Part shown: one piece after another, positions 2,594 through 40,526 of the stretch | Layout of the letters: each line of letters starts with the position of its first letter | Position numbering within the stretch: position 1 is the first letter of the stretch | Source of the DNA: Methylococcaceae bacterium | Lineage (GTDB): Bacteria > Pseudomonadota > Gammaproteobacteria > Methylococcales > Methylomonadaceae | Assembly: GCA_014191975.1 (NCBI GenBank) | Contig: BJHG01000001.1 | Span: 1,224-65,223, forward strand | Reading direction: 5' to 3' | Length of the DNA: 64,000 nucleotides | The notes under the pieces: model-generated | Seen by the model: the letters and a program-made list of their open reading frames with translations, nothing else | Told to the model about the DNA's origin: nothing | Databases searched by the model: none | Program-made: the position numbers and the translations under genes

Positions 2594-3154
2594 ATGGTCA
2601 CTTTAGAAACGCCAATTTGTGATTTTGGCAAACCCGCTATTGATTTTAAGTTACTAGGTGTCGATGGTAAAACGTGGACACTTACAGATTGCATGGGCGA
2701 AAAAGGCTTATTGGTGATGTTCATTTGCAATCATTGCCCGTACGTCAAAGCAGTCAAAGAGCGTATTGTACGCGATACCAATGAACTCAAATCCCTTGGT
2801 ATTAACAGCGTCGCTATTATGTCGAACGACTTTGTAAATTATCCTGATGATTCGTTTGAAAATATGAAACTGTGGTCTGACGAATTAAATTTTAGCTTTC
2901 CATATTTGCTCGACGAAACGCAAGAAGTGGCGAAAAATTACGGTGCAATTTGTACGCCCGACTTTTTTGGTTACAACGCGAATTTTGAATTGCAATATCG
3001 CGGACGCTTGGATTCAAGTCGCCGTGAAATTACGCCAGATAATACGCCCCGTGATTTGTTTGAGGCGATGAAACTGGTTGCTGAAACGGGACAAGCTCCT
3101 AGAGAACAATTAAGCAGTATTGGTTGTTCCATTAAATGGAAAGAGGAAGCATAA
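2594..3154 (+). CDS. Thioredoxin-fold thiol-disulfide oxidoreductase (AhpC/TSA-like family)
   Basis: 186 aa. Has a redoxin-like FICNHCPYV CxxC motif and the size typical of the thioredoxin-family proteins. Confidence 0.7.
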
Positions 3155-3156
3155 AA

Positions 3157-4323
3157 ATGACAATTTTGCGTATGGTAGATTTAGATTTAGCGGGCAAACG
3201 AGTTTTGATTCGTGAAGATTTAAATGTGCCCGTTAAAAATGGCAAAGTCACGAGCGATGCACGAATTAAAGCAAGTTTACCAACTATTGAATTCGCATTA
3301 AAGGCTGGCGCGGCAGTGATGTTAATGTCACATATCGGTCGCCCGACTGAAGGTGAATACAATCCAGAATACTCATTGCAACCTGTCGCGGAACATTTAG
3401 CAGCATTGTTAAACAAACCTGTTCGCTTAGAAAAAGACTGGCTCGATGGCATCGAAATCAAAGCGGGCGAAATCGTTTTATGCGAAAACGTACGTTTTAA
3501 CGTTGGCGAAGGCAAAAACAATGACGAACTGGGCAAAAAAATGGCGGCATTGTGCGACATTTTTGTGATGGACGCATTCGGAACAGCGCATCGCGCTCAA
3601 GCCTCAACACACGCCATCGCAAAATTTGCGCCCATTTCATGTGCAGGCCCTTTGCTTGCAAGTGAATTAGATGCGTTAAGTCGCGCACTTGAAACACCTG
3701 AAAAACCTGTGATTGCGATTGTTGGTGGCTCAAAGGTTTCGACCAAGTTAACCGTTTTAGAATCACTTTCCAAAAAAGTTGATCAGTTGATTGTTGGCGG
3801 TGGTATTGCGAATACATTTATCGCTGCGGCAGGTTTCCCAGTAGGTAAATCCCTAGTTGAAATGGATTTACTCGACGAAGCAAAACGCTTAATTGCTGCT
3901 GCAAAAGCCGCAGGTTCAGAAATTCCGATTCCCACTGATGTTGTGTGTGCGAAAGAATTTTCTGAAACAGCAGAAGCCACGATTAAAAATGTTGCTGATA
4001 TCGAAGCTGATGATTTAATTTTAGATATTGGCCCGGTTACAGCAGCGCATTACGCTGAGATTTTAAAATCCGCTAAAACGATTGTGTGGAATGGACCCGT
4101 TGGTGTATTTGAAATCGAACAATTTTCCCACGGCACACAAACATTGGCTTATGCAATTGCAGGCAGCGACGCATTTTCGATTGCTGGTGGCGGCGACACA
4201 CTCGCGGCAATTGATAAATATGGTATTAACGACCAAATCTCTTACACCTCAACAGGCGGTGGTGCGTTTTTAGAATTCCTTGAAGGTAAAGAACTTCACG
4301 CCGTTACCATTTTACAAAAATAA
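3157..4323 (+). CDS. pgk: Phosphoglycerate kinase
   Basis: [27 protein letters not shown]... and GGGDT...[14 protein letters not shown] motifs. The internal ATG at 3157 is preferred because it follows the aagaggaag RBS and matches the canonical Pgk N-terminus. Confidence 0.95.
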
Positions 4324-4354
4324 TTTTTTCACTTTTACATTTTAGGAGCAACAA

Positions 4355-4606
4355 ATGGCACGAGTCACAATTGAAGATTGTTTAGGAAACCTTGAAAACC
4401 GTTTTAAATTGGTTTTATTAGCGAGCACACGCGCACGCCAATTAAGTCATGGTGCAACAGAATTTGTTGCTCGCGGCAGAGATAAAGATACCGTTGTTGC
4501 GTTGCGTGAAATTGCGGCGGGTCATGTGACAGAAGAAAATGTCGCAGCATTGCACCGCGTTGGAGAGATTCACGATCATCACCGTCCTGAAAATCCGTTA
4601 TTTTAA
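4355..4606 (+). CDS. rpoZ: DNA-directed RNA polymerase subunit omega
   Basis: [30 protein letters not shown] is the canonical RpoZ N-terminus. It lies upstream of spoT, as in the rpoZ-spoT operon. Confidence 0.95.
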
Positions 4607-4630
4607 TTTTCGTAATACATCTAAAAATCC

Positions 4631-6799
4631 ATGTCAAAAATAACCGACTTAACAGCAAAAAATCCATTAGAAGCACAACTTGTTGAACGCTTACGAAATA
4701 CGTTGGTCGGGTATTTAGACACGGAACAGGTTACGCAATGTATGCGAGCCTATGAATTTGGAGCCTCAGCACATCTTGGGCAATTTCGTAAGAGTGGTGA
4801 ACCCTATATTTGCCACCCTGTTGCTGTTGCCATTAGCTTGGCAGAAATCCGAATGGATGCAGATGGTATTACAGCCGCAATTTTGCATGATGTCGTTGAA
4901 GATACCAAAGTTAGCAAACAAGAAATCGCCACTCAATTTAATAATGAAGTTGCTGAATTGGTGGATGGCGTAACCAAATTATCCAAAATAGAAAATCAAT
5001 CACATGCTGAAGCACAAGCTGAAAATGTGCGTAAAATGCTTTTAGCAATGGCAAAAGATTTGCGTGTGATTATCGTAAAACTCGCCGATCGTTTACATAA
5101 TATGGAAACGCTCGGTATGATGTTGCCGCCAAAAAAACGACGTATCGCACGTGAAACACTGGATATTTATGCGCCAATCGCCAATCGCTTAGGCATGAAT
5201 TCGATTCGCCACAAATTGGAAACCTTGAGTTTTGAGGCTATGTATCCATGGCGTTTTGCAGTGTTAAATCATGCGATTAAAAAGGCACGGGGAAATCGTC
5301 GAAAAATAATTGATACTATTGAAAGTACCATCAAAGCAAGGTTGAAAGCGGCGGATTTTCCATGTGACGTCGCGGGGCGAGAGAAAAATATATACAGTAT
5401 TTATAAAAAAATGGAGAAGAAAAAAATTCCACTCGCAGACGTTTTTGATGTGTATGCGTTTCGGATTTATTGTAACGATGTCGATGCGTGTTATCGGATT
5501 TTGGGTATGATGCACAATTTGTACAAGCCAATTCCAGGACGCTTCAAAGATTACATTGCGTTACCAAAAGAGAATGGCTACCAGTCATTGCATTCGGTTT
5601 TACTTGGTCCTTATGGCGTACCAATTGAAGTGCAGATTCGTACACATGAAATGCACAGAATGTCAGAATCTGGGATTGCAGCACATTGGCTGTATAAAAC
5701 CGATACTGATAAAAATCGTAACTTCCAAGCCTTGGCAAATGAATGGCTTAAAGACTTATTGGAGATTCAAAAAAGTGCGGGCGATTCACTCGAATTTATC
5801 GATAATTTGAAAGTCGATTTATTCCCACAAGAAGTATTTGTATTCACGCCAAAAGGTTCAATTGTTAAATTACCACGTGGTTCGACGATTGTCGATTTTG
5901 CTTATGCGGTGCATACAGACTTAGGTAATGCGTGTGTTTCAGCTCGAATTGATAAACAACTCATTCCATTACAAACTCCGTTGGAAAGTGGCGTTACCGT
6001 TGAAATTATTACTGCCGAACACGCACGCCCTAATCCATTATGGCTTAATTATGTGATTACCACACGAGCGCGTTTAGCAATTCGTAATCGCTTAAAACAT
6101 ATTGAAGGACAGGAAGCAAAAAATTTAGGACAACGATTACTAGAAAATGAATTAGTTGTAATGAATATTCAGCTTTCTCAAATTAGTGACGAAAAAATTA
6201 CCACTTTATTAAAAGTGATGGGCGTTAAAACGCTAGATAAGCTACTTGAAGATATTGGCTTGGGAAATAAAATGCCATTTTTAGTAGCAAAACAACTAAC
6301 GCAAAATGATGTTCACACGAATATTAAACTAGATGACGACACAAAAAGTCAAAATCGTCCTTTGATGATTAAAGGCACGGAAGGCATGGTTGTCACTCTA
6401 GCGAAATGTTGTCGCCCGATTCCAGGGGATGCCATTATTGGTTTTTTCAATCCTGGTAAAGGAATTGTTGTTCATCAACACGATTGCCATAATCACGCAA
6501 TAATTAAGAAAAAGCAGAATAATTGGCTTGATGTCGAATGGGGAACAGATACAAAAGTAGATTTTTCGACTGAAATTCGAATTGAAATTTTAAATGAGCG
6601 TGGTTCGTTAGCTACCGTTGCCGCGACTATTTCAAATTTAGATTCCAATATTGAAAACGTAACAGTTGTCGATCAAGATGCGCGAGTTTGTGTCGATTCT
6701 ATTATTTTAACGGTACAAAATAGAGTTCATTTAGCCAAAATCATGCGGCGATTAAAAGAATTATCGATTGTAATGAAGATTACGAGAGTAAAAGGCTGA
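4631..6799 (+). CDS. spoT: Bifunctional (p)ppGpp synthetase/hydrolase SpoT/RelA homologue
   Basis: 722 aa. Contains an HD hydrolase motif (ILHDVVEDT), a RelA/SpoT synthetase region (YRSLH-like GYQSLHSVL), and TGS and ACT-like C-terminal regions. Synteny with rpoZ supports the call. Confidence 0.92.
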   Translation: MSKITDLTAKNPLEAQLVERLRNTLVGYLDTEQVTQCMRAYEFGASAHLGQFRKSGEPYICHPVAVAISLAEIRMDADGITAAILHDVVEDTKVSKQEIATQFNNEVAELVDGVTKLSKIENQSHAEAQAENVRKMLLAMAKDLRVIIVKLADRLHNMETLGMMLPPKKRRIARETLDIYAPIANRLGMNSIRHKLETLSFEAMYPWRFAVLNHAIKKARGNRRKIIDTIESTIKARLKAADFPCDVAGREKNIYSIYKKMEKKKIPLADVFDVYAFRIYCNDVDACYRILGMMHNLYKPIPGRFKDYIALPKENGYQSLHSVLLGPYGVPIEVQIRTHEMHRMSESGIAAHWLYKTDTDKNRNFQALANEWLKDLLEIQKSAGDSLEFIDNLKVDLFPQEVFVFTPKGSIVKLPRGSTIVDFAYAVHTDLGNACVSARIDKQLIPLQTPLESGVTVEIITAEHARPNPLWLNYVITTRARLAIRNRLKHIEGQEAKNLGQRLLENELVVMNIQLSQISDEKITTLLKVMGVKTLDKLLEDIGLGNKMPFLVAKQLTQNDVHTNIKLDDDTKSQNRPLMIKGTEGMVVTLAKCCRPIPGDAIIGFFNPGKGIVVHQHDCHNHAIIKKKQNNWLDVEWGTDTKVDFSTEIRIEILNERGSLATVAATISNLDSNIENVTVVDQDARVCVDSIILTVQNRVHLAKIMRRLKELSIVMKITRVKG

Positions 6800-30802: not shown

Positions 30803-33800
30803 ATGACAGCTAACCAATCAGGCATTCGCGATAATCATCGTTTTGGAAAAGTCGGTGATTTCTTAAAAGAAAAAATACAACCCAATGCACAGCTACGTTT
30901 TGTATCAGCCTATTTTAGTATTTTTGGATTTGAGGCACTAAAAGCAGAATTATTACCGATTGATAAGTTGCAATTTTTATTCGGCGAACCGACTTTTGTT
31001 AAGCAACTAGACGTAGCACAATCTCAGGCGAAAGCATTTCATATTGTGGAACAAGATTTATGGCTAAATAACCGCCTGAATCAAAAAGCGATTGCTAAAA
31101 CGTGTGCGAATTGGATAACAGAAAAAGTCGAAATTCGCTCGCTGATTCAAACAAATTTGCTACATGGCAAGCTCTACCATATCAACAATAATGGCGTTGA
31201 ATCCGCGTTATTGGGTAGCTCAAATTTCACCTTGCACGGTTTAGGCGAAGGCAATTCAAATATCGAATTGAATTTAATCGTGGATAGCGACCGTGACAGA
31301 CAGGATTTAAAAAGTTGGTTTGACGGAATTTGGAACGACAAAACGTTGGTTAAAGATGTTAAACAAGAAGTCTTAAATTATTTAACGCAGCTTTATCACA
31401 ACCATTCACCGCAGTTTATTTATTACAAAACGCTCTATCACGTTTTTTATGAAGATTGGCAACGTTACCAAGAACAACGTGAAGCCACTGAAAAAAGTTT
31501 AAATAAATCGGAGATTTGGAATACCTTGTTTGACTTTCAAAAAGAAGGTGTGGTTCACGCAATTACTAAAATTGAAACGCATAACGGCTGTATTTTGGCA
31601 GACAGCGTGGGGCTGGGTAAAACCTACGAAGCCCTAGCGGTCATTAAGTATTTCGAGGCGAAACATCACAATGTTTTGGTGTTATGTCCAAAAAAACTCA
31701 GTGAAAATTGGTTGCTGTATTCATCACGCTATCAACGCCAACTTAATCCATTAAAAGCAGACAAATTAAATTACACCGTATTAAGTCACACGGATTTAAG
31801 CCGTGAAAAAGGTCTGTCAAACAATGTCGATTTAAGTGATTTCGAGTGGAGTCAGTTTGATTTAATTGTGATTGATGAATCGCACAATTTTAGAAATGAT
31901 AACAAGAGCAAAAACGGTAAATCACGCTACCAACGCTTGCTTGAGGATGTGATTCAAGCAGGAGAAAAAACGAAAGTTTTATTATTGTCAGCAACGCCTG
32001 TAAATAACGATTTATCGGATTTGTATAATCAAATTCGTTTCATTAGTGCAGATGATACTCATGCGTTTGCTGACATTGGGATTGTCGATACAAAAAAAAC
32101 ACTGCGAGCCGCGCAAAATGCCTTCCATGATGCTGTTAAAAACAAACGTCAATCGCAACTAGCCCACCATTTAAACGCGGATTTTTTCAAATTACTCGAT
32201 GCGATTACGATTGCCCGTTCACGCAAACACATTGAACGTCACTATCCCAATGTTGCCAAAGAATTAGGCCGTTTTCCTAAACGCACCGCTCCACAATCGA
32301 TTTATTATGAGATGGACACGCTTGGCGTATTTCCTTCGTTTGTCGGCATAGAAAAAGAAATTTCAGCTTATCAATTATCGTTATTTAATCCGACGAAATA
32401 CCTACTCAACGAATACCGCGATTTACCTGAATATCAAAGCAAAGTAAAAAACTTCACTCAAGAAAACCGAGAGCATTATTTAATCGGTATGATGAAGGTG
32501 AATTTTTTAAAACGCCTTGAAAGTTCCGTTGTGTCATTTGCGGACACGATGGCTCGAACGGTTATTAAGATTGAGGATTTGATTAAAAAAATAAAACAAC
32601 TCGATGAAATTGAAAATTTGATTGATGATGATTCTGACGATGAAGAGTTAAATGATGCGCTGGCGGTCGGTAAAAAAATCAAATTCAAATTAAAACATTT
32701 AGATTGTGAGCGTTGGTTGCAGGATTTAGAAAATGACAAAGAACAACTAAAAAAACTGCGGGATACAGCTCAAAACATCACATCTCAACGTGACGGTAAA
32801 TTACACGAATTAAAACGCTTGATTACCCATAAAATCAGCAATCCAACCATCGATAAGCAAGGTAAATCGATTAAAAAAGTGCTGATTTTTACCGCGTTTT
32901 CTGACACCGCCCAGTATTTGTACAATGCCTTGAAATCCGATTTAACCGAATTAGGCGTTCATTCTGGTTTAGTGACAGGTTCAAAATGTGAAGCCACGTT
33001 AGGCATGACAAATTTTAATGACGTGTTAATCAATTTTTCGCCCACCGCTAAAAAACGCAGTGGTTTTAAAAATACGCTCACGGACGAAATTGACATTTTA
33101 ATTGCGACAGATTGTATTTCGGAAGGGCAAAATTTGCAGGATTGCGATTGGGTCATTAACTACGATATTCATTGGAATCCAGTGCGTTTGATTCAACGAT
33201 TTGGACGAATTGACCGAATTAACAGCCAAAACAAAGATGTTTCGATGATTAACTTTTGGGCAACGGCTGAACTCGACCAGTATTTGAATTTGAAAAATCG
33301 GGTTGGAGCACGAATGGCGTTAGTGGATATTTCTGCCACGGGTTCGGATAACTTATTGCTCACCGAAGACGATGCTAACGATGAATTAAATTATCGTGAT
33401 GAACAGTTAAAACGCATGAAAGATGAAGTGCTGGATTTAGAAGAACTCAATGATGGCGCGACGTTAACTGATTTTAATTTTGATGATTTTCGTGCGGATT
33501 TAGGTGGCTATTTGGATTTAGAGCGCGATAAATTAGCCAACACGCCACTCGGTCTTTATGCCGTTGTGCCTGAACAACCCGATTTAAATATTCACAAAGG
33601 CGTTATTTTTTGTCTGCAACAAAAGGTTTATCAGCAAGAAAAGGGGCAACAGGTGAATCCGCTCACGCCGTTTTTCTGATTTATATTCAAGACGATGGCA
33701 AAGTCAGACGCAACTTTGTTGAAGCCAAACACACGCTCGAAGTTTTCAAAATGTTGTGCATCGGTAAAGACCAACCTTATGAAGCGTTATGCCAATTATT

Positions 33801-34002
33801 TGATGACCAAACCCATGACGGCAGTGATATGGCGCATTATTATGACTTGGTGGCAAAATCGGTCGATGCGATTAGCGAAGCCTTTCAAGAAAAAGAAATT
33901 ATCAAGTTAGCAACAGGACGTGGCGCGTTATTGCCAGTCGTTTCAGAACAAATCACAAACCCAACTGATTTTACGTTGGTAACATGGTTCGTAATTAGTT
34001 AA
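30803..34002 (+). pseudogene. PLD-family nuclease domain fused to an SNF2/DEAD-like helicase, interrupted by a 1-nt frameshift in a T5 run (33671-33675)
   Basis: N-terminal single HKD-like motif LLHGKLYHINNNGVESALLGSSNF. SNF2 motifs ILADSVGLGKTYEA, LIVIDESHNFRN, LLLSATPVNN, TDCISEGQNLQD and HWNPVRLIQRFGRIDR. The 958-aa ORF ends ..NPLTPFF* and the next frame continues FLIYIQDDGKVRRNF.. to 34002. Confidence 0.8.
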
Positions 34003-34025: not shown

Positions 34026-37000
34026 ATGACGGATAAAAATAAACTTCAAACGCTCATTAACCAATTTTCAGACGGTGATTTAAGAGCAAACGCCCTCGCA
34101 TTATTTAAAGAACTTGGCTATCAAAGTCCGCGTACTTTTAATAAACCCGTTAATGAGATTTTACGAACATTCGACCATGAAAAAGCGTTGTGTTCCGAAT
34201 GGATTAACGCGCCATTTCTGTTTCAATTAGCCGAAGATAATTTAAGCAATGTTCAATCATTGCTCACTGAGGTTGATGGCACGATTATCGAATCGTATAT
34301 GTTCGTGGCGATTGAATTAGAAAAATCCGAGTATTCCCGTTCCGATTTGGTCAGAATCACCCGCGAACTCAATAAAAGTCCACAACCTATTTTGATTTTA
34401 TTCAAACACGGCGACACATTAACGTTATCGGTTATTCACCGCCGATTGCATAAACGTGACGAAAGCAAAGACGTTTTAGAAAAAGTCACGTTGCTTAAAG
34501 ATATTCGTATCAGTGACCCGCATCGCGCCCATGTGGATATTTTGTTCGATTTGGCATTTGATAATTTGAATTTAAAAGCAGGTGCGAGTTTTGTTGATTT
34601 ACACAACGCTTGGCAAGCCGTTTTAGATACCAAAACGCTTAATAAACAGTTCTACAAAGAATTGTCACAGTGGTATTTCTGGGCAATAAAGGAAGTCTAT
34701 TTTCCTGATGCTGAAAATATCGAAGCCGTAAAAGGTGGCGTTTTTGAAGACGAAAACAAAGTCCGAGAACACAATGCAAAAAGTTTGATTCGATTATTAA
34801 CCCGATTACTTTTTGTTTGGTTTATCAAAGAAAAAAATCTCATTCCTGAACAGTTGTTCAACGAAGACTCGATTAAGGCACAATTAAACGGTTTCAAGCC
34901 GCAAATCAGCGACAAATCAAACGCCATTTTTCAAGCAAATGACAGCCATTTTTACCGCGCCATTTTGCAAAACTTATTCTTTGCAACACTCAATCAAACC
35001 TGTGAAAAACGTCAATTTCGCGGTGATGGACGACATCAAAATGTCACCAATTTGATGCGTTATAAATCCTATTTTTCAGAGCCAGACGCATTTTTAAAAT
35101 TGGTTTCTGATGTTGTGCCATTTATGAATGGTGGTTTGTTTGATTGTTTAGATAAACCCATTCCCGAATTAAAAGGCAAACAAGGCGGCGATGTGATTGC
35201 TTATGAAGATGGATTTTCAGACCGCCCCGATAATAAATTGCGCGTGCCTGATTACATTTTCTTTGGCTCACATAAAAACGTCGATTTAAGCGAAGAACTC
35301 GGCAACAAACAAAAATCCGTTGAGATTAAAGGCTTAGTTGATATTTTAAAAAGCTACAAATTCACCATCACTGAAAACACGCCGATTGAAGAAGATATTG
35401 CTCTCGACCCTGAATTATTAGGGCAAGTGTTTGAAAATTTACTCGCCAGTTACAACCCCGAAACCAAAACCACCGCACGCAAGCAAACAGGCTCTTTTTA
35501 TACCCCGCGTGAAATTGTTGATTACATGGTTGATGAATCACTCAAGGCTTATTTCAAATCCAAGTTAGAGCATTTAACGACTGAACAATTAGACAATTTG
35601 TTGAGTTACACAAAACCCACGCCCGAATTTTCAGAAGAAGATAAAACCGCTTTAATTGAAGCCATTGATACTTGCAAAATCCTTGACCCTGCTTGTGGTT
35701 CGGGCGCATTTCCAATGGGCGTTTTACACAAGTTGGTTTTCATTTTGGGCAAAATAGACCCAGACAATGAATTGTGGAAACAACGCCAAATCAAAGAAAA
35801 AGATTCTGCGTTGCAAAAACGTATTATCGAAGCCTTCACCGATAACGAAGTCGATTACGCACGAAAACTTTATCTCATCGAAAATTGTATTTATGGCGTG
35901 GATATTCAAGCGATTGCCATTCAAATCAGCAAACTTCGATTTTTCATTTCACTGATTGTTGACCAAAAAGTCGATAGAAATAAAACCAATTTTGGCGTGT
36001 TACCGTTGCCGAATTTAGAAACCAAATTTGTCGCGGCAAATACGTTAATCGGCATTGAGAAACCGAAAAAACAAACCAGTTTATTTGATAGCAAAGAAAT
36101 TGAAGCTCTCGAAGAAAAATTAAAAAAAGTCCGTCACAGTTTGTTTAGCGTCAGAAGTCCAAGCAGAAAAAGAGAATTACGCGACGAAGATAAATTGTTG
36201 CGTGAACAAATCGGCGAATTGTTAGAACAACACGGCTGGGGAAATGAAACCGCACAGCAATTAGCACATTGGAATCCTTACGACCAAAACGCCAACGCCG
36301 ATTTTTTTAATCTCGAATGGATGTTTGGTGAAACAGGTTTTGATATTGTGATTGGCAATCCGCCTTACATTCAAATTCAAAAATTGAAAAATTCTGCAAT
36401 TTTAGCAAAACAGGATTTTCAAGTTTTTGATAAAGGTTCTGATTTATATATTTTATTTTTTGAAAAAGGATGGCTTTTATTAAAAAATAACGGTGTTTTA
36501 TCTTTCATTACGCCGAATACTTGGCTTCAATCAATTTCTTTTACAAAAATCAGAAAATTTTTATCAAATCAATTTCTTTGGTCAAACATTTTGATTCCAG
36601 ATAAAAACCTTCGATGCAGTCGTAGATACATTAGTAGTTGTTTTTGAAAAAAATAAAATAGCTGAATCACACACGCTAAATATCTTTCAAAAAAATAATG
36701 AAAGCATATATTTTCTTCAAACTCTTTCATGCAACCAAATTCCAAAAAATGGCGATGTTATCAATATAACGGTGAATCAAAAACAGAGTGTTATTTATGA
36801 AAAAATCATTAACAGCTCAATCAAAATTAAAGATGTTTGTAATGTTTTTAACGGTGTAAAACCTTTTGAAAAGGGAAAAGGCAATCCTCCTCAAAGTGCC
36901 GAAGTTATGAAAACAAAGCCTTTCGTTGCTGAAGGTAAAAAACCTAGTGAAGAATGGTCGCCTTTGCTTAGAGGTCGTTTGATTCAACGATATATAAATC

Positions 37001-37488
37001 TTTAGAATAATAATTATTGGATTTTGTACGGTAATTGGCTTGCTGCTCCAAGAAATGCTGATATTTTTAATGCAACAGAAAAAATATTAATCCGACAAAC
37101 AGGTGATAGCATTATTGCGGTTATTGTTGAAAATGGTTTTATTGCTAGAGATAACTTGCACATAATTTTACCTCAAAATCCTTTGTTCAATTTGAAATAT
37201 GTGCTGGCTATTGTGAATTCAAAATTAACTGATTTTATTTATACCACCATGAATCCAGAAAAAGGCGAAGCTCTTGCTCAAGTAAAAAAACAACACGTTG
37301 AAAATTTAATTCTTCGGGATATTTCCATTTCCGAGCAACAACCATTCATCACCTTAGTAGACAAAATCCTTGCCGAGAAAAAAGCAGGCAACGACACCCG
37401 CGCGTTGGAACGTGAGATTGATGTGTTGGTTTATGGACTTTATGGGTTGACGGAAGATGAAATCAGAATAATTGAGGGTGGGAAATAA
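34026..37488 (+). pseudogene. Large gamma-class N6-adenine DNA methyltransferase with C-terminal target-recognition region (Eco57I/TaqI-like, type IIG/ISP/PglX-like architecture), carrying one frameshift and one in-frame stop
   Basis: Motifs FYTPREIVDYMV, ILDPACGSGAF (motif I) and VIGNPPYIQIQ (motif IV). The frame shifts at the A5 run 36603-36607 (..ILIPDK / TFDAVVDTLVVVFEK..), and there is an in-frame TAG at 37003-37005 (..RYINL*NNNYWILYGNWLAAPR..). The canonical tail is LVYGLYGLTEDEIRIIEGGK*. Confidence 0.8.
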
Positions 37489-37508
37489 GGTTTATCTGGA
37501 ACATTAGA

Positions 37509-37652
37509 GCAAATCCCCCAGCCTTGCAGGCTGCCCCCTTCAAAAAGGGGGGTAAGAGATTAAAAAGCGTGTGCGTGTGTTTATGCTTTTGCTTTACCGT
37601 CTTTTACCCCCTTTTTGAAGGGGGGAGCGGCGATAGCCGCAGGGGGATTTGC
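37509..37652. repeat. Composite 144-bp palindromic element (two inverted ~50-nt arms, each with nested G/C-run hairpins); MITE/REP-like
   Basis: The left arm is gcaaatcccccagccttgcaggctgcccccttcaaaaaggggggtaagag. The reverse complement of the right arm is gcaaatccccctgcggctatcgccgctccccccttcaaaaagggggtaaaag. Confidence 0.8.
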
Positions 37653-37668
37653 TTTTAAGTTTTCGATA

Positions 37669-37700
37669 GAAGAGATTTTAATTGTGAAGGGTTGAAAATG
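37669..37700 (+). repeat. Degenerate copy of the methyltransferase 3' tail (copy 2 of 5)
   Basis: gaagagattttaattgtgaagggttgaaaATG compared with the consensus gaggagattttgattgtggagggtgggaaATG. It ends at the start codon of the MazF-associated antitoxin. Confidence 0.65.
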
Positions 37701-37937
37701 ATTGCGTTAAGACAGCTAAAACGTGTGCCAAAAAATCATAAAATTGTGATTGAAGTGCCTGCGAGTATTCATGAAAATCAAATGATGGAAGTGATTTTGT
37801 TATTCAAAGAAACGCCGAAGAATTCGAGAGCTGACAAACTCGCGCAATTAAAAGCGAGCCAACACGATGGGCTTTTCTTGAGTGATCTACAGATGATTAG
37901 TGATGATTTTGCTGATGTTGATGGTGAGAAATGGTGA
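37698..37937 (+). CDS. Putative antitoxin of the MazF/PemK module
   Basis: Small acidic-tailed ORF overlapping the mazF-like start (ATGGTGATG). No clear family match by eye; the call rests on position. Confidence 0.55.
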   Translation: MIALRQLKRVPKNHKIVIEVPASIHENQMMEVILLFKETPKNSRADKLAQLKASQHDGLFLSDLQMISDDFADVDGEKW

Positions 37938-38275
37938 TGCGTTGGAGTATTTATTTGGTGAATCTTGACCCAACGATTGGCTCGGAACAAGGCAAAACGC
38001 GCCCTGTTTTGGTAATTAGCGACGATGACGTTAACGCGATTTTGCCAGTGATAAACATTTTGCCGCTAACCTCGCTGAAACAAGGTCGCCGAATTTACCC
38101 GAATGAAGTGTTGTTGAAAAAAGAACAATCTGGGCTTGATAAAGATTCGCTGGTGCTGTGTTACCAAATCCGAACCGTTGATAAAAAACGGCTGATTAAA
38201 AAGTTGGGTGAAGTGAAAAACGATGACACGCAAACTGAAATCATTGATGCGCTGAGTTTTCAGTTGGGATTGTGA
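37931..38275 (+). CDS. Type II toxin, PemK/MazF-family endoribonuclease
   Basis: IYLVNLDPTIGSEQGKTRPVLVIS and LCYQIRTVDKKRL are the MazF/PemK signatures. Confidence 0.88.
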   Translation: MVMRWSIYLVNLDPTIGSEQGKTRPVLVISDDDVNAILPVINILPLTSLKQGRRIYPNEVLLKKEQSGLDKDSLVLCYQIRTVDKKRLIKKLGEVKNDDTQTEIIDALSFQLGL

Positions 38276-38283
38276 TTGATATG

Positions 38284-38346
38284 TTGTTCTATTGGCTTTA
38301 TGGGTTGAGTGACGAGGAGATTTTGATTGTGGAGGGTGGGAAATGA
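38284..38346 (+). repeat. Copy of the methyltransferase 3' tail (copy 3 of 5)
   Basis: ..gctttatgggttgagtgacgaggagattttgattgtggagggtgggaaatga translates to LYGLSDEEILIVEGGK*. Its stop overlaps the relE-like ATG (ATGA). Confidence 0.85.
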
Positions 38347-38609
38347 ATTACAACGTGACTTTTACGGATACCGCGTTGAAAAATTTGGCGCGTTATCCAG
38401 CAAAAGACCAGCAAACGATTTTGAAAAATATCAAACAGCTTTCAGAAAACCCACTCACAAAAAGTAACGTGAAAAAGTTGGTGGATTTTGGCGTTTCATA
38501 TCGGCTTCGGGTTGGGAATTATCGGGTGTTATTTGACCGCGAAGACAGTTTAAAAATTATCGACGTGGTGGATGTTTTGCCGCGTAACAAAGTATATCAA
38601 CGGAGATAA
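38343..38609 (+). CDS. Type II toxin, RelE/ParE family
   Basis: 88 aa; ..YRLRVGNYRVLFDREDSLKIIDVVDVLPR is typical of RelE/StbE. Confidence 0.85.
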   Translation: MNYNVTFTDTALKNLARYPAKDQQTILKNIKQLSENPLTKSNVKKLVDFGVSYRLRVGNYRVLFDREDSLKIIDVVDVLPRNKVYQRR

Positions 38610-38611
38610 TC

Positions 38612-38827
38612 ATGTTAGAAAACGTGCAAGTGATTCAAGAAAAAGGACAAAACAAATTTGCGGTGATTGATTTTGAGGAGTTTGTTTTGGTGAAAGAATT
38701 ATTGTCGAATGCTGAAAAATTGGAAGATTATTTAGATTATTTACACATTCAAACGGTCAAAAAACAGGATAAATCGCCGCGTCATTCTTTTGATGATGTC
38801 GTGGCGGCATTGAATTTGAATGTTTGA
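38612..38827 (+). CDS. Putative antitoxin encoded downstream of the RelE-like toxin (reverse, HigBA-like order)
   Basis: 71-aa ORF starting 3 nt after the toxin stop. N-terminal ..NKFAVIDFEEFVLVKELL resembles Phd/YefM-type antitoxin starts. Confidence 0.55.
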   Translation: MLENVQVIQEKGQNKFAVIDFEEFVLVKELLSNAEKLEDYLDYLHIQTVKKQDKSPRHSFDDVVAALNLNV

Positions 38828-38861
38828 TGGGTTGATTTTAATTGTGGAGGGTGGGAAATGA
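38826..38861 (+). repeat. Shortened copy of the methyltransferase 3' tail (copy 4 of 5)
   Basis: gatgggttg|attttaattgtggagggtgggaaatga equals copy 5 with an internal deletion. It begins in the stop codon of the preceding antitoxin and ends in the ATG of the next cassette. Confidence 0.75.
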
Positions 38862-39070
38862 ACACATTACAACAAGTAATTCACCAAGAAATTAACACGT
38901 TACCGATAATGTCACAAAAAGAGGTTTTAGATTTTGTGTTGTTTTTGAAAAACCGAATTAACGTTGAATCTGACCATGATTATTTGTCGAAAAACCCTGA
39001 AATTAAACAAGCAATTATTGATGGTTTGAATATGCCGCTTGATGAATGTTCAACGGAATTGGATTGGTAA
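38858..39070 (+). CDS. Putative antitoxin (DUF2281-like) of the YoeB-like module
   Basis: 70 aa; ..LPIMSQKEVLDFVLFLKNR resembles DUF2281 antitoxins. Its stop overlaps the toxin ATG. Confidence 0.55.
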   Translation: MNTLQQVIHQEINTLPIMSQKEVLDFVLFLKNRINVESDHDYLSKNPEIKQAIIDGLNMPLDECSTELDW

Positions 39071-39329
39071 TGTATCAACTTTATTACACCAATCGCGCTA
39101 AAAAAGATGCTCAGTTGATAAAAGCCTCGAATTTGAAAGATAAAGTTACAGAATTATTAGCGTTAATTTCTGCTGACCCGCTGGCGTATCCGCCCGAATT
39201 TGAGTTTTTAAAAGGGGATTTGAAAGGCGCGATTTCACGGCGAATTAACAAACAGCATCGTTTGGTTTATCAGGTTTTGGAAGATGAAAAAGCGCACAGG
39301 TTTTGATGATGTGGACGCATTATGAGTAA
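39070..39329 (+). pseudogene. Type II toxin, Txe/YoeB family, frameshifted in an A5 run (39287-39291)
   Basis: ..GAISRRINKQHRLVYQVLEDEK then, after a -1 shift, ..SAQVLMMWTHYE*, which is the canonical YoeB C-terminus. As it stands the ORF ends EDEKAHRF* at 39306. Confidence 0.8.
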
Positions 39330-39420
39330 CACCCGCGCGTTGGAACGTGAGATTGATGGGTTGGTTTATAAGCTTTATGGGTTGAGTGATGAGGAGATTT
39401 TGATTGTGGAGAGGAAATAA
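39329..39420 (+). repeat. Copy of the methyltransferase 3' tail (copy 5 of 5)
   Basis: acacccgcgcgttggaacgtgagattgatgggttggtttat... translates to TRALEREIDGLVYKLYGLSDEEILIVERK*. Its first 41 nt differ from 37394-37434 at one position. Confidence 0.9.
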
Positions 39421-39467
39421 TGAAATGTGCAATTTGCCGAAATGGCGAAACAGAAACAGGTGTGACA
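39420..39467 (+). pseudogene. 16-codon fragment resembling the N-terminus of a YgiT/MqsA-type zinc-ribbon antitoxin, fused in frame to the next gene
   Basis: MKCAICRNGETETGVT resembles the MKC.IC..GE start of MqsA/YgiT-type proteins. It is followed directly by the signal peptide MKLLSLLFLIFF of the HupE-like protein. Confidence 0.35.
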
Positions 39468-40526
39468 ATGAAACTACTTAGTCTTTTATTTTTAATTTTT
39501 TTTACTCAAATCAGTTTTGCTCACGATGCAGGTTTGAGTTCTGCTGATGTAATTTTGAATGAAAAAGGCGTTGATGTTTCAATGACGTTTGCTTTGCAAG
39601 ACACCGAAGCTTTTGCGCCAATGGATAACGACGGCGACGCAGACGTGAGTAATGAAGAACGCGAAGCATCAAAACCTGAAGTTGCCGCGTTGATTGCAAA
39701 AGAATTGGAAGTCACGCTAAACAATCAAAACGTGAAACCGTTTGAAATCGCTAACGTCACATTTGACGCACAAAATAACGCGCATCTTTTGTTTCATTAC
39801 CAACCCGCGGCAACCAGTTTAAAAATGCAGTTGTTGTTTTTAAATAAATTGCCTGACGGTCACAAACAAGTCGTGACGATTAAAGACACAACAGGCAAAA
39901 ATCTCAGCGAAAAAATGCTCACGCAACACGATAACGTTATCGAATTAAATTTAGCAGCTGGCGAAAGCACGTCGATGTTTAAAGATTTTTTTGTGCTTGG
40001 CGTTGAACACATTTTGACGGGTTACGACCATTTGCTGTTTTTGTTTGCGTTATTGATTGTGACGCATCGTTTTTGGTCGGCGTTTGGAATTATTACGTTT
40101 TTCACGATTGCTCACTCGATTACGCTTGCGCTCGCTGGCATGAATTGGGTCACGATTCCCAGCACGATTGTTGAACCGTTAATTGCCGCGTCGATTGTGT
40201 ATGTTGGCGTAGAAAATTTGATTCGCAAAGAACCCAAAGGCAGAAAATATCTAACGTTCGCGTTTGGGTTGATTCACGGTTTTGGTTTTGCGGCGGTGTT
40301 ACAAGAAATGAACATTACTAGCATCGAATCGGGAATTTTGGTGCCGCTGTTTTCGTTCAATTTAGGCGTTGAAACAGGGCAGTTAATCGTTACGTCGATT
40401 TCATTACCAATCATTTGGTGGTTGCATACAAAACCACTCATCGAAAAATACTTCGTTCCCGTTTGTTCAACGATTGTCTGCATTGCAGGCGGATATTGGT
40501 TGATTGAACGCACACTTTTACAATAA
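39468..40526 (+). CDS. HupE/UreJ-family membrane protein with N-terminal periplasmic domain
   Basis: Signal peptide, an acidic DNDGDADVSNEE segment, then GVEHILTGYDHLLFLFALLIV and IHGFGFA, which are HupE/UreJ_2-like motifs. Confidence 0.75.
   Translation: MKLLSLLFLIFFTQISFAHDAGLSSADVILNEKGVDVSMTFALQDTEAFAPMDNDGDADVSNEEREASKPEVAALIAKELEVTLNNQNVKPFEIANVTFDAQNNAHLLFHYQPAATSLKMQLLFLNKLPDGHKQVVTIKDTTGKNLSEKMLTQHDNVIELNLAAGESTSMFKDFFVLGVEHILTGYDHLLFLFALLIVTHRFWSAFGIITFFTIAHSITLALAGMNWVTIPSTIVEPLIAASIVYVGVENLIRKEPKGRKYLTFAFGLIHGFGFAAVLQEMNITSIESGILVPLFSFNLGVETGQLIVTSISLPIIWWLHTKPLIEKYFVPVCSTIVCIAGGYWLIERTLLQ

Follow-up and report, generated by a model that had tools for sequence, protein, structure and literature searches.

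Reiterated copies of a methyltransferase 3' tail join toxin-antitoxin cassettes in a Methylococcales array

How do toxin-antitoxin (TA) operons of unrelated families come to lie one behind another, each introduced by a remnant of the same neighbouring gene? The question is raised by a 64,000-nucleotide stretch of DNA (contig BJHG01000001.1 of assembly GCA_014191975.1, positions 1,224 to 65,223; hereafter the window) from a Methylococcaceae metagenome-assembled genome (MAG), in which a type IIG-like N6-adenine methyltransferase gene is followed by TA modules separated by copies, or relics, of its conserved 3' end, here called the tail. The 154-amino-acid (aa) C-terminal open reading frame (ORF) of this methyltransferase is 100% identical to 'LBMAG43_00430'. 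We think it likely that the locus is a cassette array of type II TA operons whose joints are the reiterated tail, and that its cassettes are exchanged by homology through the tail copies. Related contigs from genomes and metagenomes, designated L0xx, amount to ~18 non-redundant loci in total; a 20-mer of the tail, searched for in 185,579 species genomes, returned 29 loci, and further ones came from a metagenome scan and exact-protein look-ups, giving a taxon coverage of one representative per species plus whatever the exact-word searches reached. The tail profile has 134 positions and was run with nhmmer. From the methyltransferase tail to hupE the window contains the following elements (coordinates, strand, description):

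37354-37488, +, tail A, the conserved 134-nucleotide (nt) 3' block of the methyltransferase (LVDKILAEKKAGNDTRALEREIDVLVYGLYGLTEDEIRIIEGGK and stop codon; nhmmer E 1e-37, 37354-37486)
37489-37670, strand not applicable, long hairpin between tail A and relic B, a non-coding cassette or terminator
37669-37700, +, relic B, last ~30 nt of the tail with a weak Shine-Dalgarno sequence, ending at the mazE ATG (repeat finding, L049 collinearity)
37698-37937, +, MazE-like antitoxin
37931/37937-38275, +, MazF/PemK toxin (Pfam PemK_toxin, E 1e-28)
38271-38346, +, relic C, tail positions 61-134, mini-ORF VIDMLFYWLYGLSDEEILIVEGGK and stop codon (nhmmer E 1e-14, 38271-38344)
38343-38609, +, RelE/ParE-type toxin (Pfam ParE_toxin)
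38612-38827, +, 71-aa antitoxin downstream of RelE
38825-38861, +, relic D, short, 12 nt missing internally, reaching from the stop of the antitoxin to the ATG that follows (ATGA, 38858)
38858-39070, +, DUF2281-like antitoxin (Pfam)
39070-39329, +, YoeB-type toxin (Pfam YoeB at 39046-39306)
39329-39420, +, relic E, tail positions 42-134 (nhmmer E 4e-24, 39329-39421)
39420-39467, +, truncated MqsA-type antitoxin start, 16 codons, fused to hupE, whose true start is 39468

When the last part of the methyltransferase gene (37394-37488) was searched by blastn against the whole window, it matched 39329-39385 (57 nt, 93% identity, E 1e-18) and 38274-38308 (86%, E 0.004), with exact 13-mers at 38332 and 38847 and nothing comparable elsewhere in the 64 kb. 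Repeat finding placed 37413-37489, 38271-38347 and 39348-39424 in one 77-nt family of 74-82% identity, relics E and C are 97.5% identical over 40 nt (E 1e-15), and relic E is 95.6% identical to positions 2043-2132 of L049. Relics B and D are short and are therefore validated by context: relic B opens a segment (37669-38814) that is collinear with and 87% identical to L049 783-1925, a block whose first 30 nt are the end of an intact methyltransferase tail, and relic D has an exact 21-mer (ATTGTGGAGGGTGGGAAATGA) in common with relic C. Exact identities between relics span 20-55 nt. The initial annotation had reported that the last ~95 nt of the methyltransferase recur four times downstream; all five copies were found at or near the places it named, including the weak one at 37669-37700, which the L049 block bears out, but the conserved block is 134 nt long (37354-37488), not 95, and relic C begins at 38271, overlapping the mazF stop codon (38273-38275), and not at 38284. 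Direct reading also reproduced its finer points, namely the single mismatch between the first 41 nt of the copies at 37394 and 39329, the deletion within relic D, the overlaps of ATGA type at 38343 and 38858, the TAATG at 39418-39422 and a GGAG(G/A)G motif ahead of each start, and a beginning at the stop of the preceding cassette holds for each relic in the window.

That these copies reflect chance similarity or an assembly artefact is barely credible. The DNA is AT-rich, two of the relics are short and metagenome assemblers can mis-join at repeats, but the nhmmer matches range from E 1e-14 to 1e-37 and tail pattern searches gave 0 matches in 100 shuffles. The window array is moreover identical in the NCBI MAG, in Logan contigs of at least seven runs and in ENA scaffolds, and the final k of the usual assemblers exceeds the length of its exact repeats (21-30 nt or less).

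The modules between the relics were predicted from sequence alone to be of MazF, RelE and YoeB type, followed by an MqsA-like start. Pfam recovered the first three (37931-38275, 38343-38609 and 39046-39306), and the fourth is borne out by intact DUF4258/MqsA cassettes in L012, L043 and L049 (MKCAICRNGETESGVTTVTLE..., PF15731), with window positions 39411-39456 being 97.8% identical to L049 2421-2466, which spans the DUF4258 end and the mqsA start. All ORFs of at least 45 aa between the relics are TA genes, so that the reported lack of an integrase between cassettes stands. Across the arrays every cassette combines a recognised toxin fold (PemK, ParE/RelE, YoeB, HigB, DUF4258, BrnT, PIN or DUF4160 by Pfam) with an adjacent small partner gene (MqsA, RelB-like, DUF2442, or a 55-100 aa protein with no Pfam match) and is thus a predicted type II TA pair.

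The same architecture, with 2-8 tail-linked cassettes, recurs at ~18 loci of lake-dwelling methane oxidisers, in genomes and metagenomes of Methylobacter and other Methylococcales. Pfam distinguishes at least 12 TA families, which stand in differing order (MazEF, RelE-AT, AT-YoeB, AT-ParE, RelB-ParE, HigB, DUF4258-MqsA, BrnTA, DUF4160-DUF2442 and at least four VapBC types; AT, antitoxin), and the arrays occupy at least four chromosomal sites (exbD/hupE, fmt/rsmB, ppx and MoCF). Several MAGs carry two arrays, for example L025 with L035 and L039 with L043. The arrays read as follows (MT, methyltransferase; ψ, pseudogene; prime, truncated):

Window: MTψ / hairpin / MazEF / RelE-AT / AT-YoeBψ / MqsA'::hupE
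L049: MT / MazEF / RelE-AT100 / DUF4258-MqsA / next helicase
L012: helicase'::tail / RelE-AT100 / DUF4258-MqsA-55aa / rsmB
L043: fmt / MT / DUF4258-MqsA-55aa / rsmB
L015: MT / MazEF / AT-YoeB / AT-ParE / RelE-AT
L020: MT / AT-YoeB' / AT / HigB-73aa / MazEF
L025: MT / RelB-ParE / AT-PIN / hairpin / rsmB
L031: MT / BrnTA / MazEF
L034: MT / VapBC / VapBC / AT-YoeB / AT-ParE
L035: MT / HigB-73aa / AT-YoeB / VapBC / ppx
L040+L041 = L045: MT / AT-ParE / AT' / RelB-ParE / VapBC / VapBC / AT-YoeB' / DUF4160-DUF2442 / BrnA / ppx (8 cassettes)
L022, L026, L027, L032, L033, L042, L014: shorter arrays

With the tail profile applied to the loci of the 20-mer scan, multi-tail arrays were found only in Methylobacter/Methylococcales lake MAGs, and tails carrying the 20-mer in Bacteroidales, Sulfurimonas, Neomarinimicrobiota and Thermodesulfobacteriota had no TA pair or relic downstream; the phenomenon is therefore lineage-restricted. 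Cassettes also stand directly behind intact tails. The MazEF pair overlaps the stop codon of an intact methyltransferase (ATGA) in L015, a second, longer array from Methylobacter sp. (GCA_038922455.1), and in L049; homologues of the RelE cassette (94% identity) likewise overlap intact methyltransferase stops, and close RelE homologues (85-94% identical) overlap by 4 nt the stops of full-length Eco57I/TaqI_C methyltransferases, as in a 1167-aa gene adjoining fmt and at locus L013. One candidate explanation for the relics, that they are the ordinary 5' leader of these TA families, was rejected: distant RelE homologues (60-72% identical) in ordinary contexts lack tail sequence, and the relic is therefore not the normal leader of the family. 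Searches for plasmid or phage carriers of the cassettes gave no match except one yoeB on a cyanobacterial plasmid.

Why the tail should serve as the joint is suggested by its conservation and by the way in which its copies are cut. Among 12 methyltransferases the 126-nt tail is 86.7% identical and the adjacent upstream 130 nt 54.8%, against a shuffle baseline of 46.4%, and the tail is therefore a sharply bounded block common to otherwise unrelated DNA; the proteins themselves have identities of 41-87%, the specificity domain diverging most. The spacers between cassettes measure 28-105 nt and consist entirely of tail sequence, and all cassettes are co-oriented. Irrespective of what follows, the joint between an upstream stop codon and the tail sits at a tail position typical of the upstream cassette (upstream gene, tail position, loci):

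YoeB, 41-45, window, L034, L035 and L041 (then MqsA', AT-ParE, VapB and DUF4160)
MazF, 61, window, L032, L049, L066 and L069
55/73-aa gene, 59, L012, L043 and L035
AT71, 27, L020 and L040/45
BrnA, 63, L031 and L041
ParE-b, 101, L025, L033 and L041

These are counts of loci that are phylogenetically non-independent. At the other end of the relic, the bases just before the start codon are typical of the downstream cassette (HigB ...GGGGAAATAAATG; VapB-a ...AAATAGGAGAACGCnATG; DUF4258 ...GGGGAAGTGA), and the 3' 40 nt of relics with the same downstream and a different upstream cassette are 70.5% identical as against 65.1% otherwise (permutation p ~0.002). The upstream junction thus tracks the upstream cassette and the start junction the downstream one, which places the points of exchange inside the relics. 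Consistent with this, cassette genes are 92-98% identical between arrays and the adjoining relics, far less alike at 62-82%, are mosaics.

Exchange can be followed most closely where alleles of the window locus itself were assembled from lake metagenomes. Three were found: MazEF, RelE-AT and AT-YoeB, as in the window; MazEF and AT-YoeB; and MazEF, DUF4160-DUF2442 and VapBC. The second is represented by L062 and L064, contigs from two samples of one lake series that match window 37736-38354 at 99.4% and 38834-40268 at 99.8% and lack exactly 515 base pairs (bp), made up of the RelE-antitoxin cassette together with relic D; the 21-nt ATTGTGGAGGGTGGGAAATGA that relics C and D have in common contains the joint and is thus the crossover interval, and the full allele occurs in the same sample as the 515-bp-less one (L008). 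The third allele (L066 and L068) is 96.8% identical to window 37453-38336, a stretch that takes in tail A, the hairpin, MazEF (the MazF proteins are 100% identical) and relic C, and a further match at 91.4% to window 39411-40060 includes the joint between mqsA' and hupE; between these shared flanks DUF4160-DUF2442 and VapBC take the place of RelE-AT and AT-YoeB. Whole cassettes therefore vary between strains in content and order, both among the three alleles and across the ~18 loci. The initial annotation had proposed variation in cassette number as a check, and the assembled alleles supply it, in content as well as number, with breakpoints in relics.

Vertical inheritance offers a simpler account, according to which a big ancestral array stood behind one methyltransferase, cassettes were lost differentially and the relics were kept as translational-coupling leaders. 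Deletions are indeed seen (the allele without RelE-AT, the DUF4258 toxin of the window, the restriction-modification (R-M) genes of L012, L022 and L033), and at 5 of 9 junction types the relic mini-ORF is open, its start overlapping the stop upstream. Arrays disagree in cassette order, however (MazEF>RelE>YoeB in the window, MazEF>YoeB>ParE>RelE in L015, YoeB>AT>HigB>MazEF in L020, BrnTA>MazEF in L031), and loss alone is therefore insufficient. Arrays also stand at four or more chromosomal sites behind methyltransferases of 41-87% identity, cassette genes are far more alike than relics, and at one locus two cassettes have been replaced by two others between identical flanks. Order conflicts and the replacement allele largely refute differential loss, which we regard as very unlikely.

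A different origin would make each TA pair the surviving end of an island integrated at the methyltransferase 3' end with a replacement tail (attL/attR), the rest of the island and its integrase having been deleted. Direct repeats of a gene's 3' end around inserted DNA are the signature of such elements, and in L015 the cassettes lie inside the tail, flanked by tail direct repeats, with the native remainder (...IVEGQAKPAAANS and stop codon) and a terminator hairpin following them. More than 12 islands would nevertheless have had to arrive independently and be cut back precisely to start and stop codons; no array has an integrase fragment between its cassettes, the same cassettes recur with the same junctions in other arrays, and single cassettes of ~0.5 kb are cleanly gained, lost or replaced. 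We consider it highly improbable. A further argument in its favour comes from L053, an unrelated metagenome contig in which a RelE/antitoxin pair (RelE 70% identical to that of the window, with its own ~320-nt upstream region) follows prfC, bracketed by two perfect direct repeats, each 240 nt long, of the 3' end and terminator of that gene (3442-3681 and 4605-4844). L053 is possibly a recent primary insertion showing the same style of 3'-end duplication at another gene.

We therefore return to exchange through the tail copies. Cassettes in the arrays are ORF-exact: the first start of a cassette overlaps the stop of a tail copy, which also gives the Shine-Dalgarno sequence, and its last stop abuts or overlaps the 5' end of the next copy, truncated at a cassette-specific position. 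Recombination between direct tail repeats could then insert, delete or swap whole cassettes within and between arrays, most likely by host RecA-type homologous recombination, possibly with imported DNA or, in genomes that carry two arrays, the other array as partner. Campbell insertion of a circularised tail-plus-cassette, double crossover and unequal exchange are candidate topologies, of which the first had been suggested in the initial annotation and the other two suit the data no less well; the replacement allele fits a double crossover, and the 515-bp indel fits excision or integration. The minimum for RecA-dependent exchange in Escherichia coli is ~25 nt, and the relic identities are near or above it. 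No recombinase gene adjoins any of the ~18 arrays (whole genomes were not searched for an unlinked one), the repeat search of the window gave no inverted repeat or dyad within a relic, and tail A, relic C and relic E, each folded as DNA for both strands, scored z -0.36 to +1.21 against shuffles, giving no attC-like fold; an attC or dif-like structure in the relics was ruled out by this folding and the repeat search. The lack of an adjacent recombinase and of any relic hairpin or dyad, together with identities of 20-55 nt, therefore favours host homologous recombination. The central proposal of the initial annotation, stacking and exchange by recombination through the tail in an integron-like manner without integron machinery, is in this way supported by the shuffled orders, the independent junctions, the three alleles and the absence of a neighbouring recombinase or attC-like structure.

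Several points weigh against homologous exchange as a full account. It does not explain the ORF-exact outer boundaries in more than 12 unrelated TA families, which need strong selection for coupling or some further capture step, and those breakpoints that can be mapped are concentrated in the final ~25 nt of the relic. Such clustering would be expected from a site-specific core, and equally from homologous recombination, since no other segment is as conserved or is present in every relic. The recombinase search covered the genes adjoining the arrays. The hairpin behind tail A could terminate read-through into the cassettes, and the scan for promoters in the relics was a crude one. The evidence consists of assemblies, mostly metagenomic, and the window array and its variants come from different assemblers, pipelines and samples.

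The breakpoint clustering also speaks for site-specific recombination, in which an unlinked tyrosine, serine or Xer-like recombinase acting at the 3' core of the tail (~GTGGAGGGTGGGAAATGA) would move cassettes as circles, which would make the array a true analogue of integrons, with a new att site. Two breakpoints, that of L062 within the 21-nt identity and that at 38336, where L066 departs from the window, fall in the last 10-25 nt of a relic, RelE genes are 97.6% identical as against 62% in the 60 nt upstream, and the left boundary is exact in more than 12 cassette families. Set against this are the lack of a recombinase gene beside any array, relics free of dyad symmetry and hairpins, right-hand boundaries at many tail positions (27, 42, 59, 61, 63, 77 and 101), and a conserved core that coincides with the Shine-Dalgarno and start region and could be conserved by selection alone; we judge this alternative unlikely. 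A bolder reading, which we think unlikely, is that of a dedicated gene-capture platform, with the tail as both attachment site and expression signal: promoterless TA (perhaps also other) ORFs would be captured codon-exact by a further step, moved by an unlinked recombinase at the GTGGAGGGTGGGAAATGA core or by a specialised homology-dependent route, and translated through a mini-ORF relay. If true, such a platform would be a second, independently evolved integron-like system.

How the cassettes might be expressed bears on why they are cut to the codon. At 5 of 9 junction types the tail frame continues without a stop into the gene upstream, where it has a start codon that overlaps that gene's stop or lies shortly ahead of it: GTGA behind mazF, ATGA behind the antitoxin of 71 aa and, for yoeB, an ATG 7 nt ahead of the stop. 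The stop of the relic mini-ORF overlaps the start of the next cassette. Thus the GTG of relic C overlaps the mazF stop and its own stop overlaps the relE ATG (ATGA, 38343), and the 32-aa mini-ORF of relic E (39322-39420) begins with an ATG within the end of yoeB and ends in a TAA that overlaps the next ATG (TAATG, 39418-39422). This arrangement suggests that relic mini-ORFs may relay translation along the array, and that selection for coupling may trim the boundaries. A consensus scan, admittedly crude, found no sigma-70-like site in the relics; a TTGATG-17-TATGGG in the tail, seen by eye as a promoter candidate, fails the same scan. Outside the arrays, 50-320 nt of spacer precede the genes of distant RelE homologues. 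As the spacers within the arrays leave no room for cassette promoters and hold no sigma-70-like site, we infer expression from upstream, and the cassettes are presumably expressed by read-through and translational coupling, possibly by way of the mini-ORFs. Loss of a cassette by recombination between repeats would remove its antitoxin gene and would be penalised by TA addiction; arrays would then accrete, and would persist after the R-M genes decay, which makes addiction a plausible reason why TA pairs in particular accumulate.

The nearest structural counterparts of such an array are the orphan toxin/immunity arrays of Rhs and contact-dependent inhibition (CDI) loci, and in function it resembles a TA-rich sedentary chromosomal integron. 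In one account of Rhs/CDI loci, displaced fragments of the conserved region of the main gene precede each module and mediate homologous recombination (PMC3967940). Like rhs-CT/rhsI and cdiA-CT/cdiI, the present array lies directly 3' of the main gene, each module is led by a fragment of that gene's conserved coding sequence (here tail positions 27-134, 42-134, 61-134 and so on), this fragment would be the homologous-recombination substrate for module swaps, and the cargo is a toxin with a protective partner. In contrast to Rhs, CDI and Maf loci, the main gene encodes an Eco57I/TaqI_C N6-adenine methyltransferase and not a secreted or delivered toxin, and the reiterated fragment is its extreme 3' tail, terminated by a stop codon. 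Rhs/CDI toxin domains need in-frame fusion to the main gene for expression and export, whereas each cassette described here is a self-contained intracellular type II TA operon that begins with an ATG or GTG of its own and has no such fusion; the homology is also much shorter, at most 134 nt, and the main gene gains no new function by exchange.

With integrons the array shares unidirectional, compact, ORF-exact and apparently promoterless cassettes, a reiterated element that starts at the stop codon, strain-variable order and content, and enrichment in TA modules, which have been described as protecting sedentary chromosomal integron arrays against loss (bioRxiv 10.1101/2022.08.03.502626). It differs in having no intI, attI or attC hairpin at the array, intI being absent beside L012, L014 and L015 as well, in a repeat that is protein-coding sequence of the neighbouring gene, and in cassettes that are without exception TA pairs or the hairpin element; integron TA cassettes have their own promoters, for which there is no space here. 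As in islands at gene 3' ends (attL/attR), direct repeats of a 3' end flank the insert and the upstream copy keeps the gene intact, to which the native tail remainder and terminator of L015 and the 240-nt version at prfC in L053 may be compared; unlike such islands, the arrays have no integrase, inserts of 0.5-0.6 kb, boundaries at start and stop codons, and cassettes shuffled among loci. The pdif modules of Acinetobacter plasmids are likewise small, include TA pairs, are bounded by a reiterated short site and move without an element-encoded recombinase. Their sites are 28-bp XerC/XerD dyads in alternating orientation on plasmids; judged against the dif consensus, the repeats here differ in being direct, 30-134 nt long, dyad-free, chromosomal and derived from the coding tail of a gene. 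No description of TA arrays at methyltransferase tails was found in the literature searched. Modular, population-variable cassette arrays can be built and maintained without a dedicated recombinase, with ~130 nt of the conserved coding end of a defence gene as the sole handle, and the arrays offer a natural system in which to study the origin of ORF-exact cassettes, unsolved for integrons, and the clustering of TA modules near restriction-modification and other defence genes.

The gene that donates the tail belongs to an R-M-like pair, both members of which are broken in the window:

30803-34002, +, HKD(PLD)-SNF2 helicase/nuclease gene of an R-M-like system, pseudogene, frameshift near 33664-33679
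34026-37488, +, type IIG-like N6-adenine methyltransferase (DUF4391-Eco57I-TaqI_C; Pfam, PADLOC REase_MTase_IIG), pseudogene

The helicase has Pfam domains PLDc_2, SNF2 and Helicase_C and matches PADLOC 'HKD+Snf2' (E 2e-111); tblastn places its frame change at residues 971-974 of the intact 1082-aa L049 homologue. Tblastn with intact homologues likewise locates the lesions of the methyltransferase, a frameshift near 36560-36650 and an in-frame stop at 37003-37005. Identical breaks occur in four independent Logan assemblies and are therefore not assembly errors. Intact reading frames of both genes are absent from the window and present in L025, L031, L040, L043 and L049. In L012, L022 and L033 the R-M genes have been independently deleted and tail and array kept: an N-terminal helicase fragment lies just 5' of the tail in all three, fused to it in L012 and L022 (in L012 within a 10-nt microhomology) and separated from it by a short methyltransferase remnant in L033. 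The arrays, retained where the R-M genes are dead or deleted, thus outlive the methyltransferase rather than serve it, as would fit TA pairs in the role of selfish stabilisers, for which the methyltransferase is only a landing pad and a source of expression. Pfam identifies exbBD/tonB, hupE and a TonB-dependent receptor among the other window neighbours of the array; the R-M-like island lies between exbD and a second hupE, inside a TonB/ExbBD/HupE/TonB-dependent-receptor cluster. In L049 a second HKD-SNF2 helicase gene (2660-5908) starts right after the mqsA stop of the last cassette, and such R-M-like systems can therefore stand in tandem with a TA array between them. L015 has an IS200/IS605-type Y1 transposase gene (1320-1856) between the helicase and methyltransferase genes, which was not seen at other arrays and is therefore probably incidental.

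Compared with an L049-like array of methyltransferase, MazEF, RelE-AT100 and DUF4258-MqsA, the window differs by four changes: an extra tail and the hairpin 5' of relic B, AT-YoeB and relic D as an insert behind a RelE antitoxin of reduced length, loss of the DUF4258 toxin, and truncation of mqsA against hupE, a joint also present in L066. The ends of the DUF4258 loss resemble each other (GGAGAGGAAATAATG in relic E, GGAGAAAATAATG at the DUF4258 3' end). The yoeB gene of the window carries a 1-nt frameshift after residue 83 (39290-39329), its true end (...VLMMWTHYE and stop codon) lying in the +1 frame, and tblastn with the L035 YoeB halts at 39294. All Logan and population contigs share this frameshift and call a 78-aa product, and the upstream antitoxin is intact; an intact antitoxin beside a broken toxin is what would be expected of a decaying TA pair. 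With its pseudogenised R-M genes and yoeB and its lost or truncated cassettes, the window array, judged by its sequence, is a decaying one. Neither the lesions of the R-M pair and yoeB nor the hairpin had been recorded in the initial annotation.

The hairpin that follows tail A is 182 nt long and near-perfect, with a predicted RNA fold of -104 kcal/mol (z -10.3). The same hairpin follows the tail in L039 and L066/L067 and is the last element before rsmB in L025, and the succession of tail, hairpin, relic B and MazE is found in L039, L066 and L067 as well. It behaves like a non-coding cassette, for which a terminator, an insulator and a transposable element of the miniature inverted-repeat type (MITE) are all candidates. 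A multi-copy MITE was suspected because all Logan contigs break inside the hairpin, ~160 nt past the methyltransferase stop; the element is single-copy in the window, and its long palindrome explains the breaks better than multiple copies would.

Where arrays lie between fmt and rsmB, the ribosome-binding region of rsmB is a tail relic (L012 1547-1627, L043, L025 4500-4593, L033 4080-4130), and in L033 the rsmB ATG overlaps the stop of the last antitoxin; this housekeeping gene is therefore now dependent on the 3' joint of the array. For annotation, short 'hypothetical' ORFs between TA pairs, and the initiation regions of core genes such as rsmB in some genomes, are to be read as fossil methyltransferase tails.

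Two observations concern changes within cassettes. VapBC-a is followed by remnants of DUF4258-MqsA without a tail relic, consisting of the mqsA 3' end in L035 (2641-2730) and the DUF4258 3' end in L066 (2110-2135); not all joints are therefore tail-mediated, and some are illegitimate deletions within cassettes. The antitoxin linked to RelE occurs in two forms, of 100 aa (L012 463-765) and of 71 aa (window 38612-38827, L025 3156-3371), and the extra C-terminal ~30 residues of the longer form (GLANAIIEGRENDFISEDEIFA...) match the C-terminal end of a RelB-like antitoxin found in another cassette, which suggests that the long form may have arisen by domain exchange between neighbouring cassettes.

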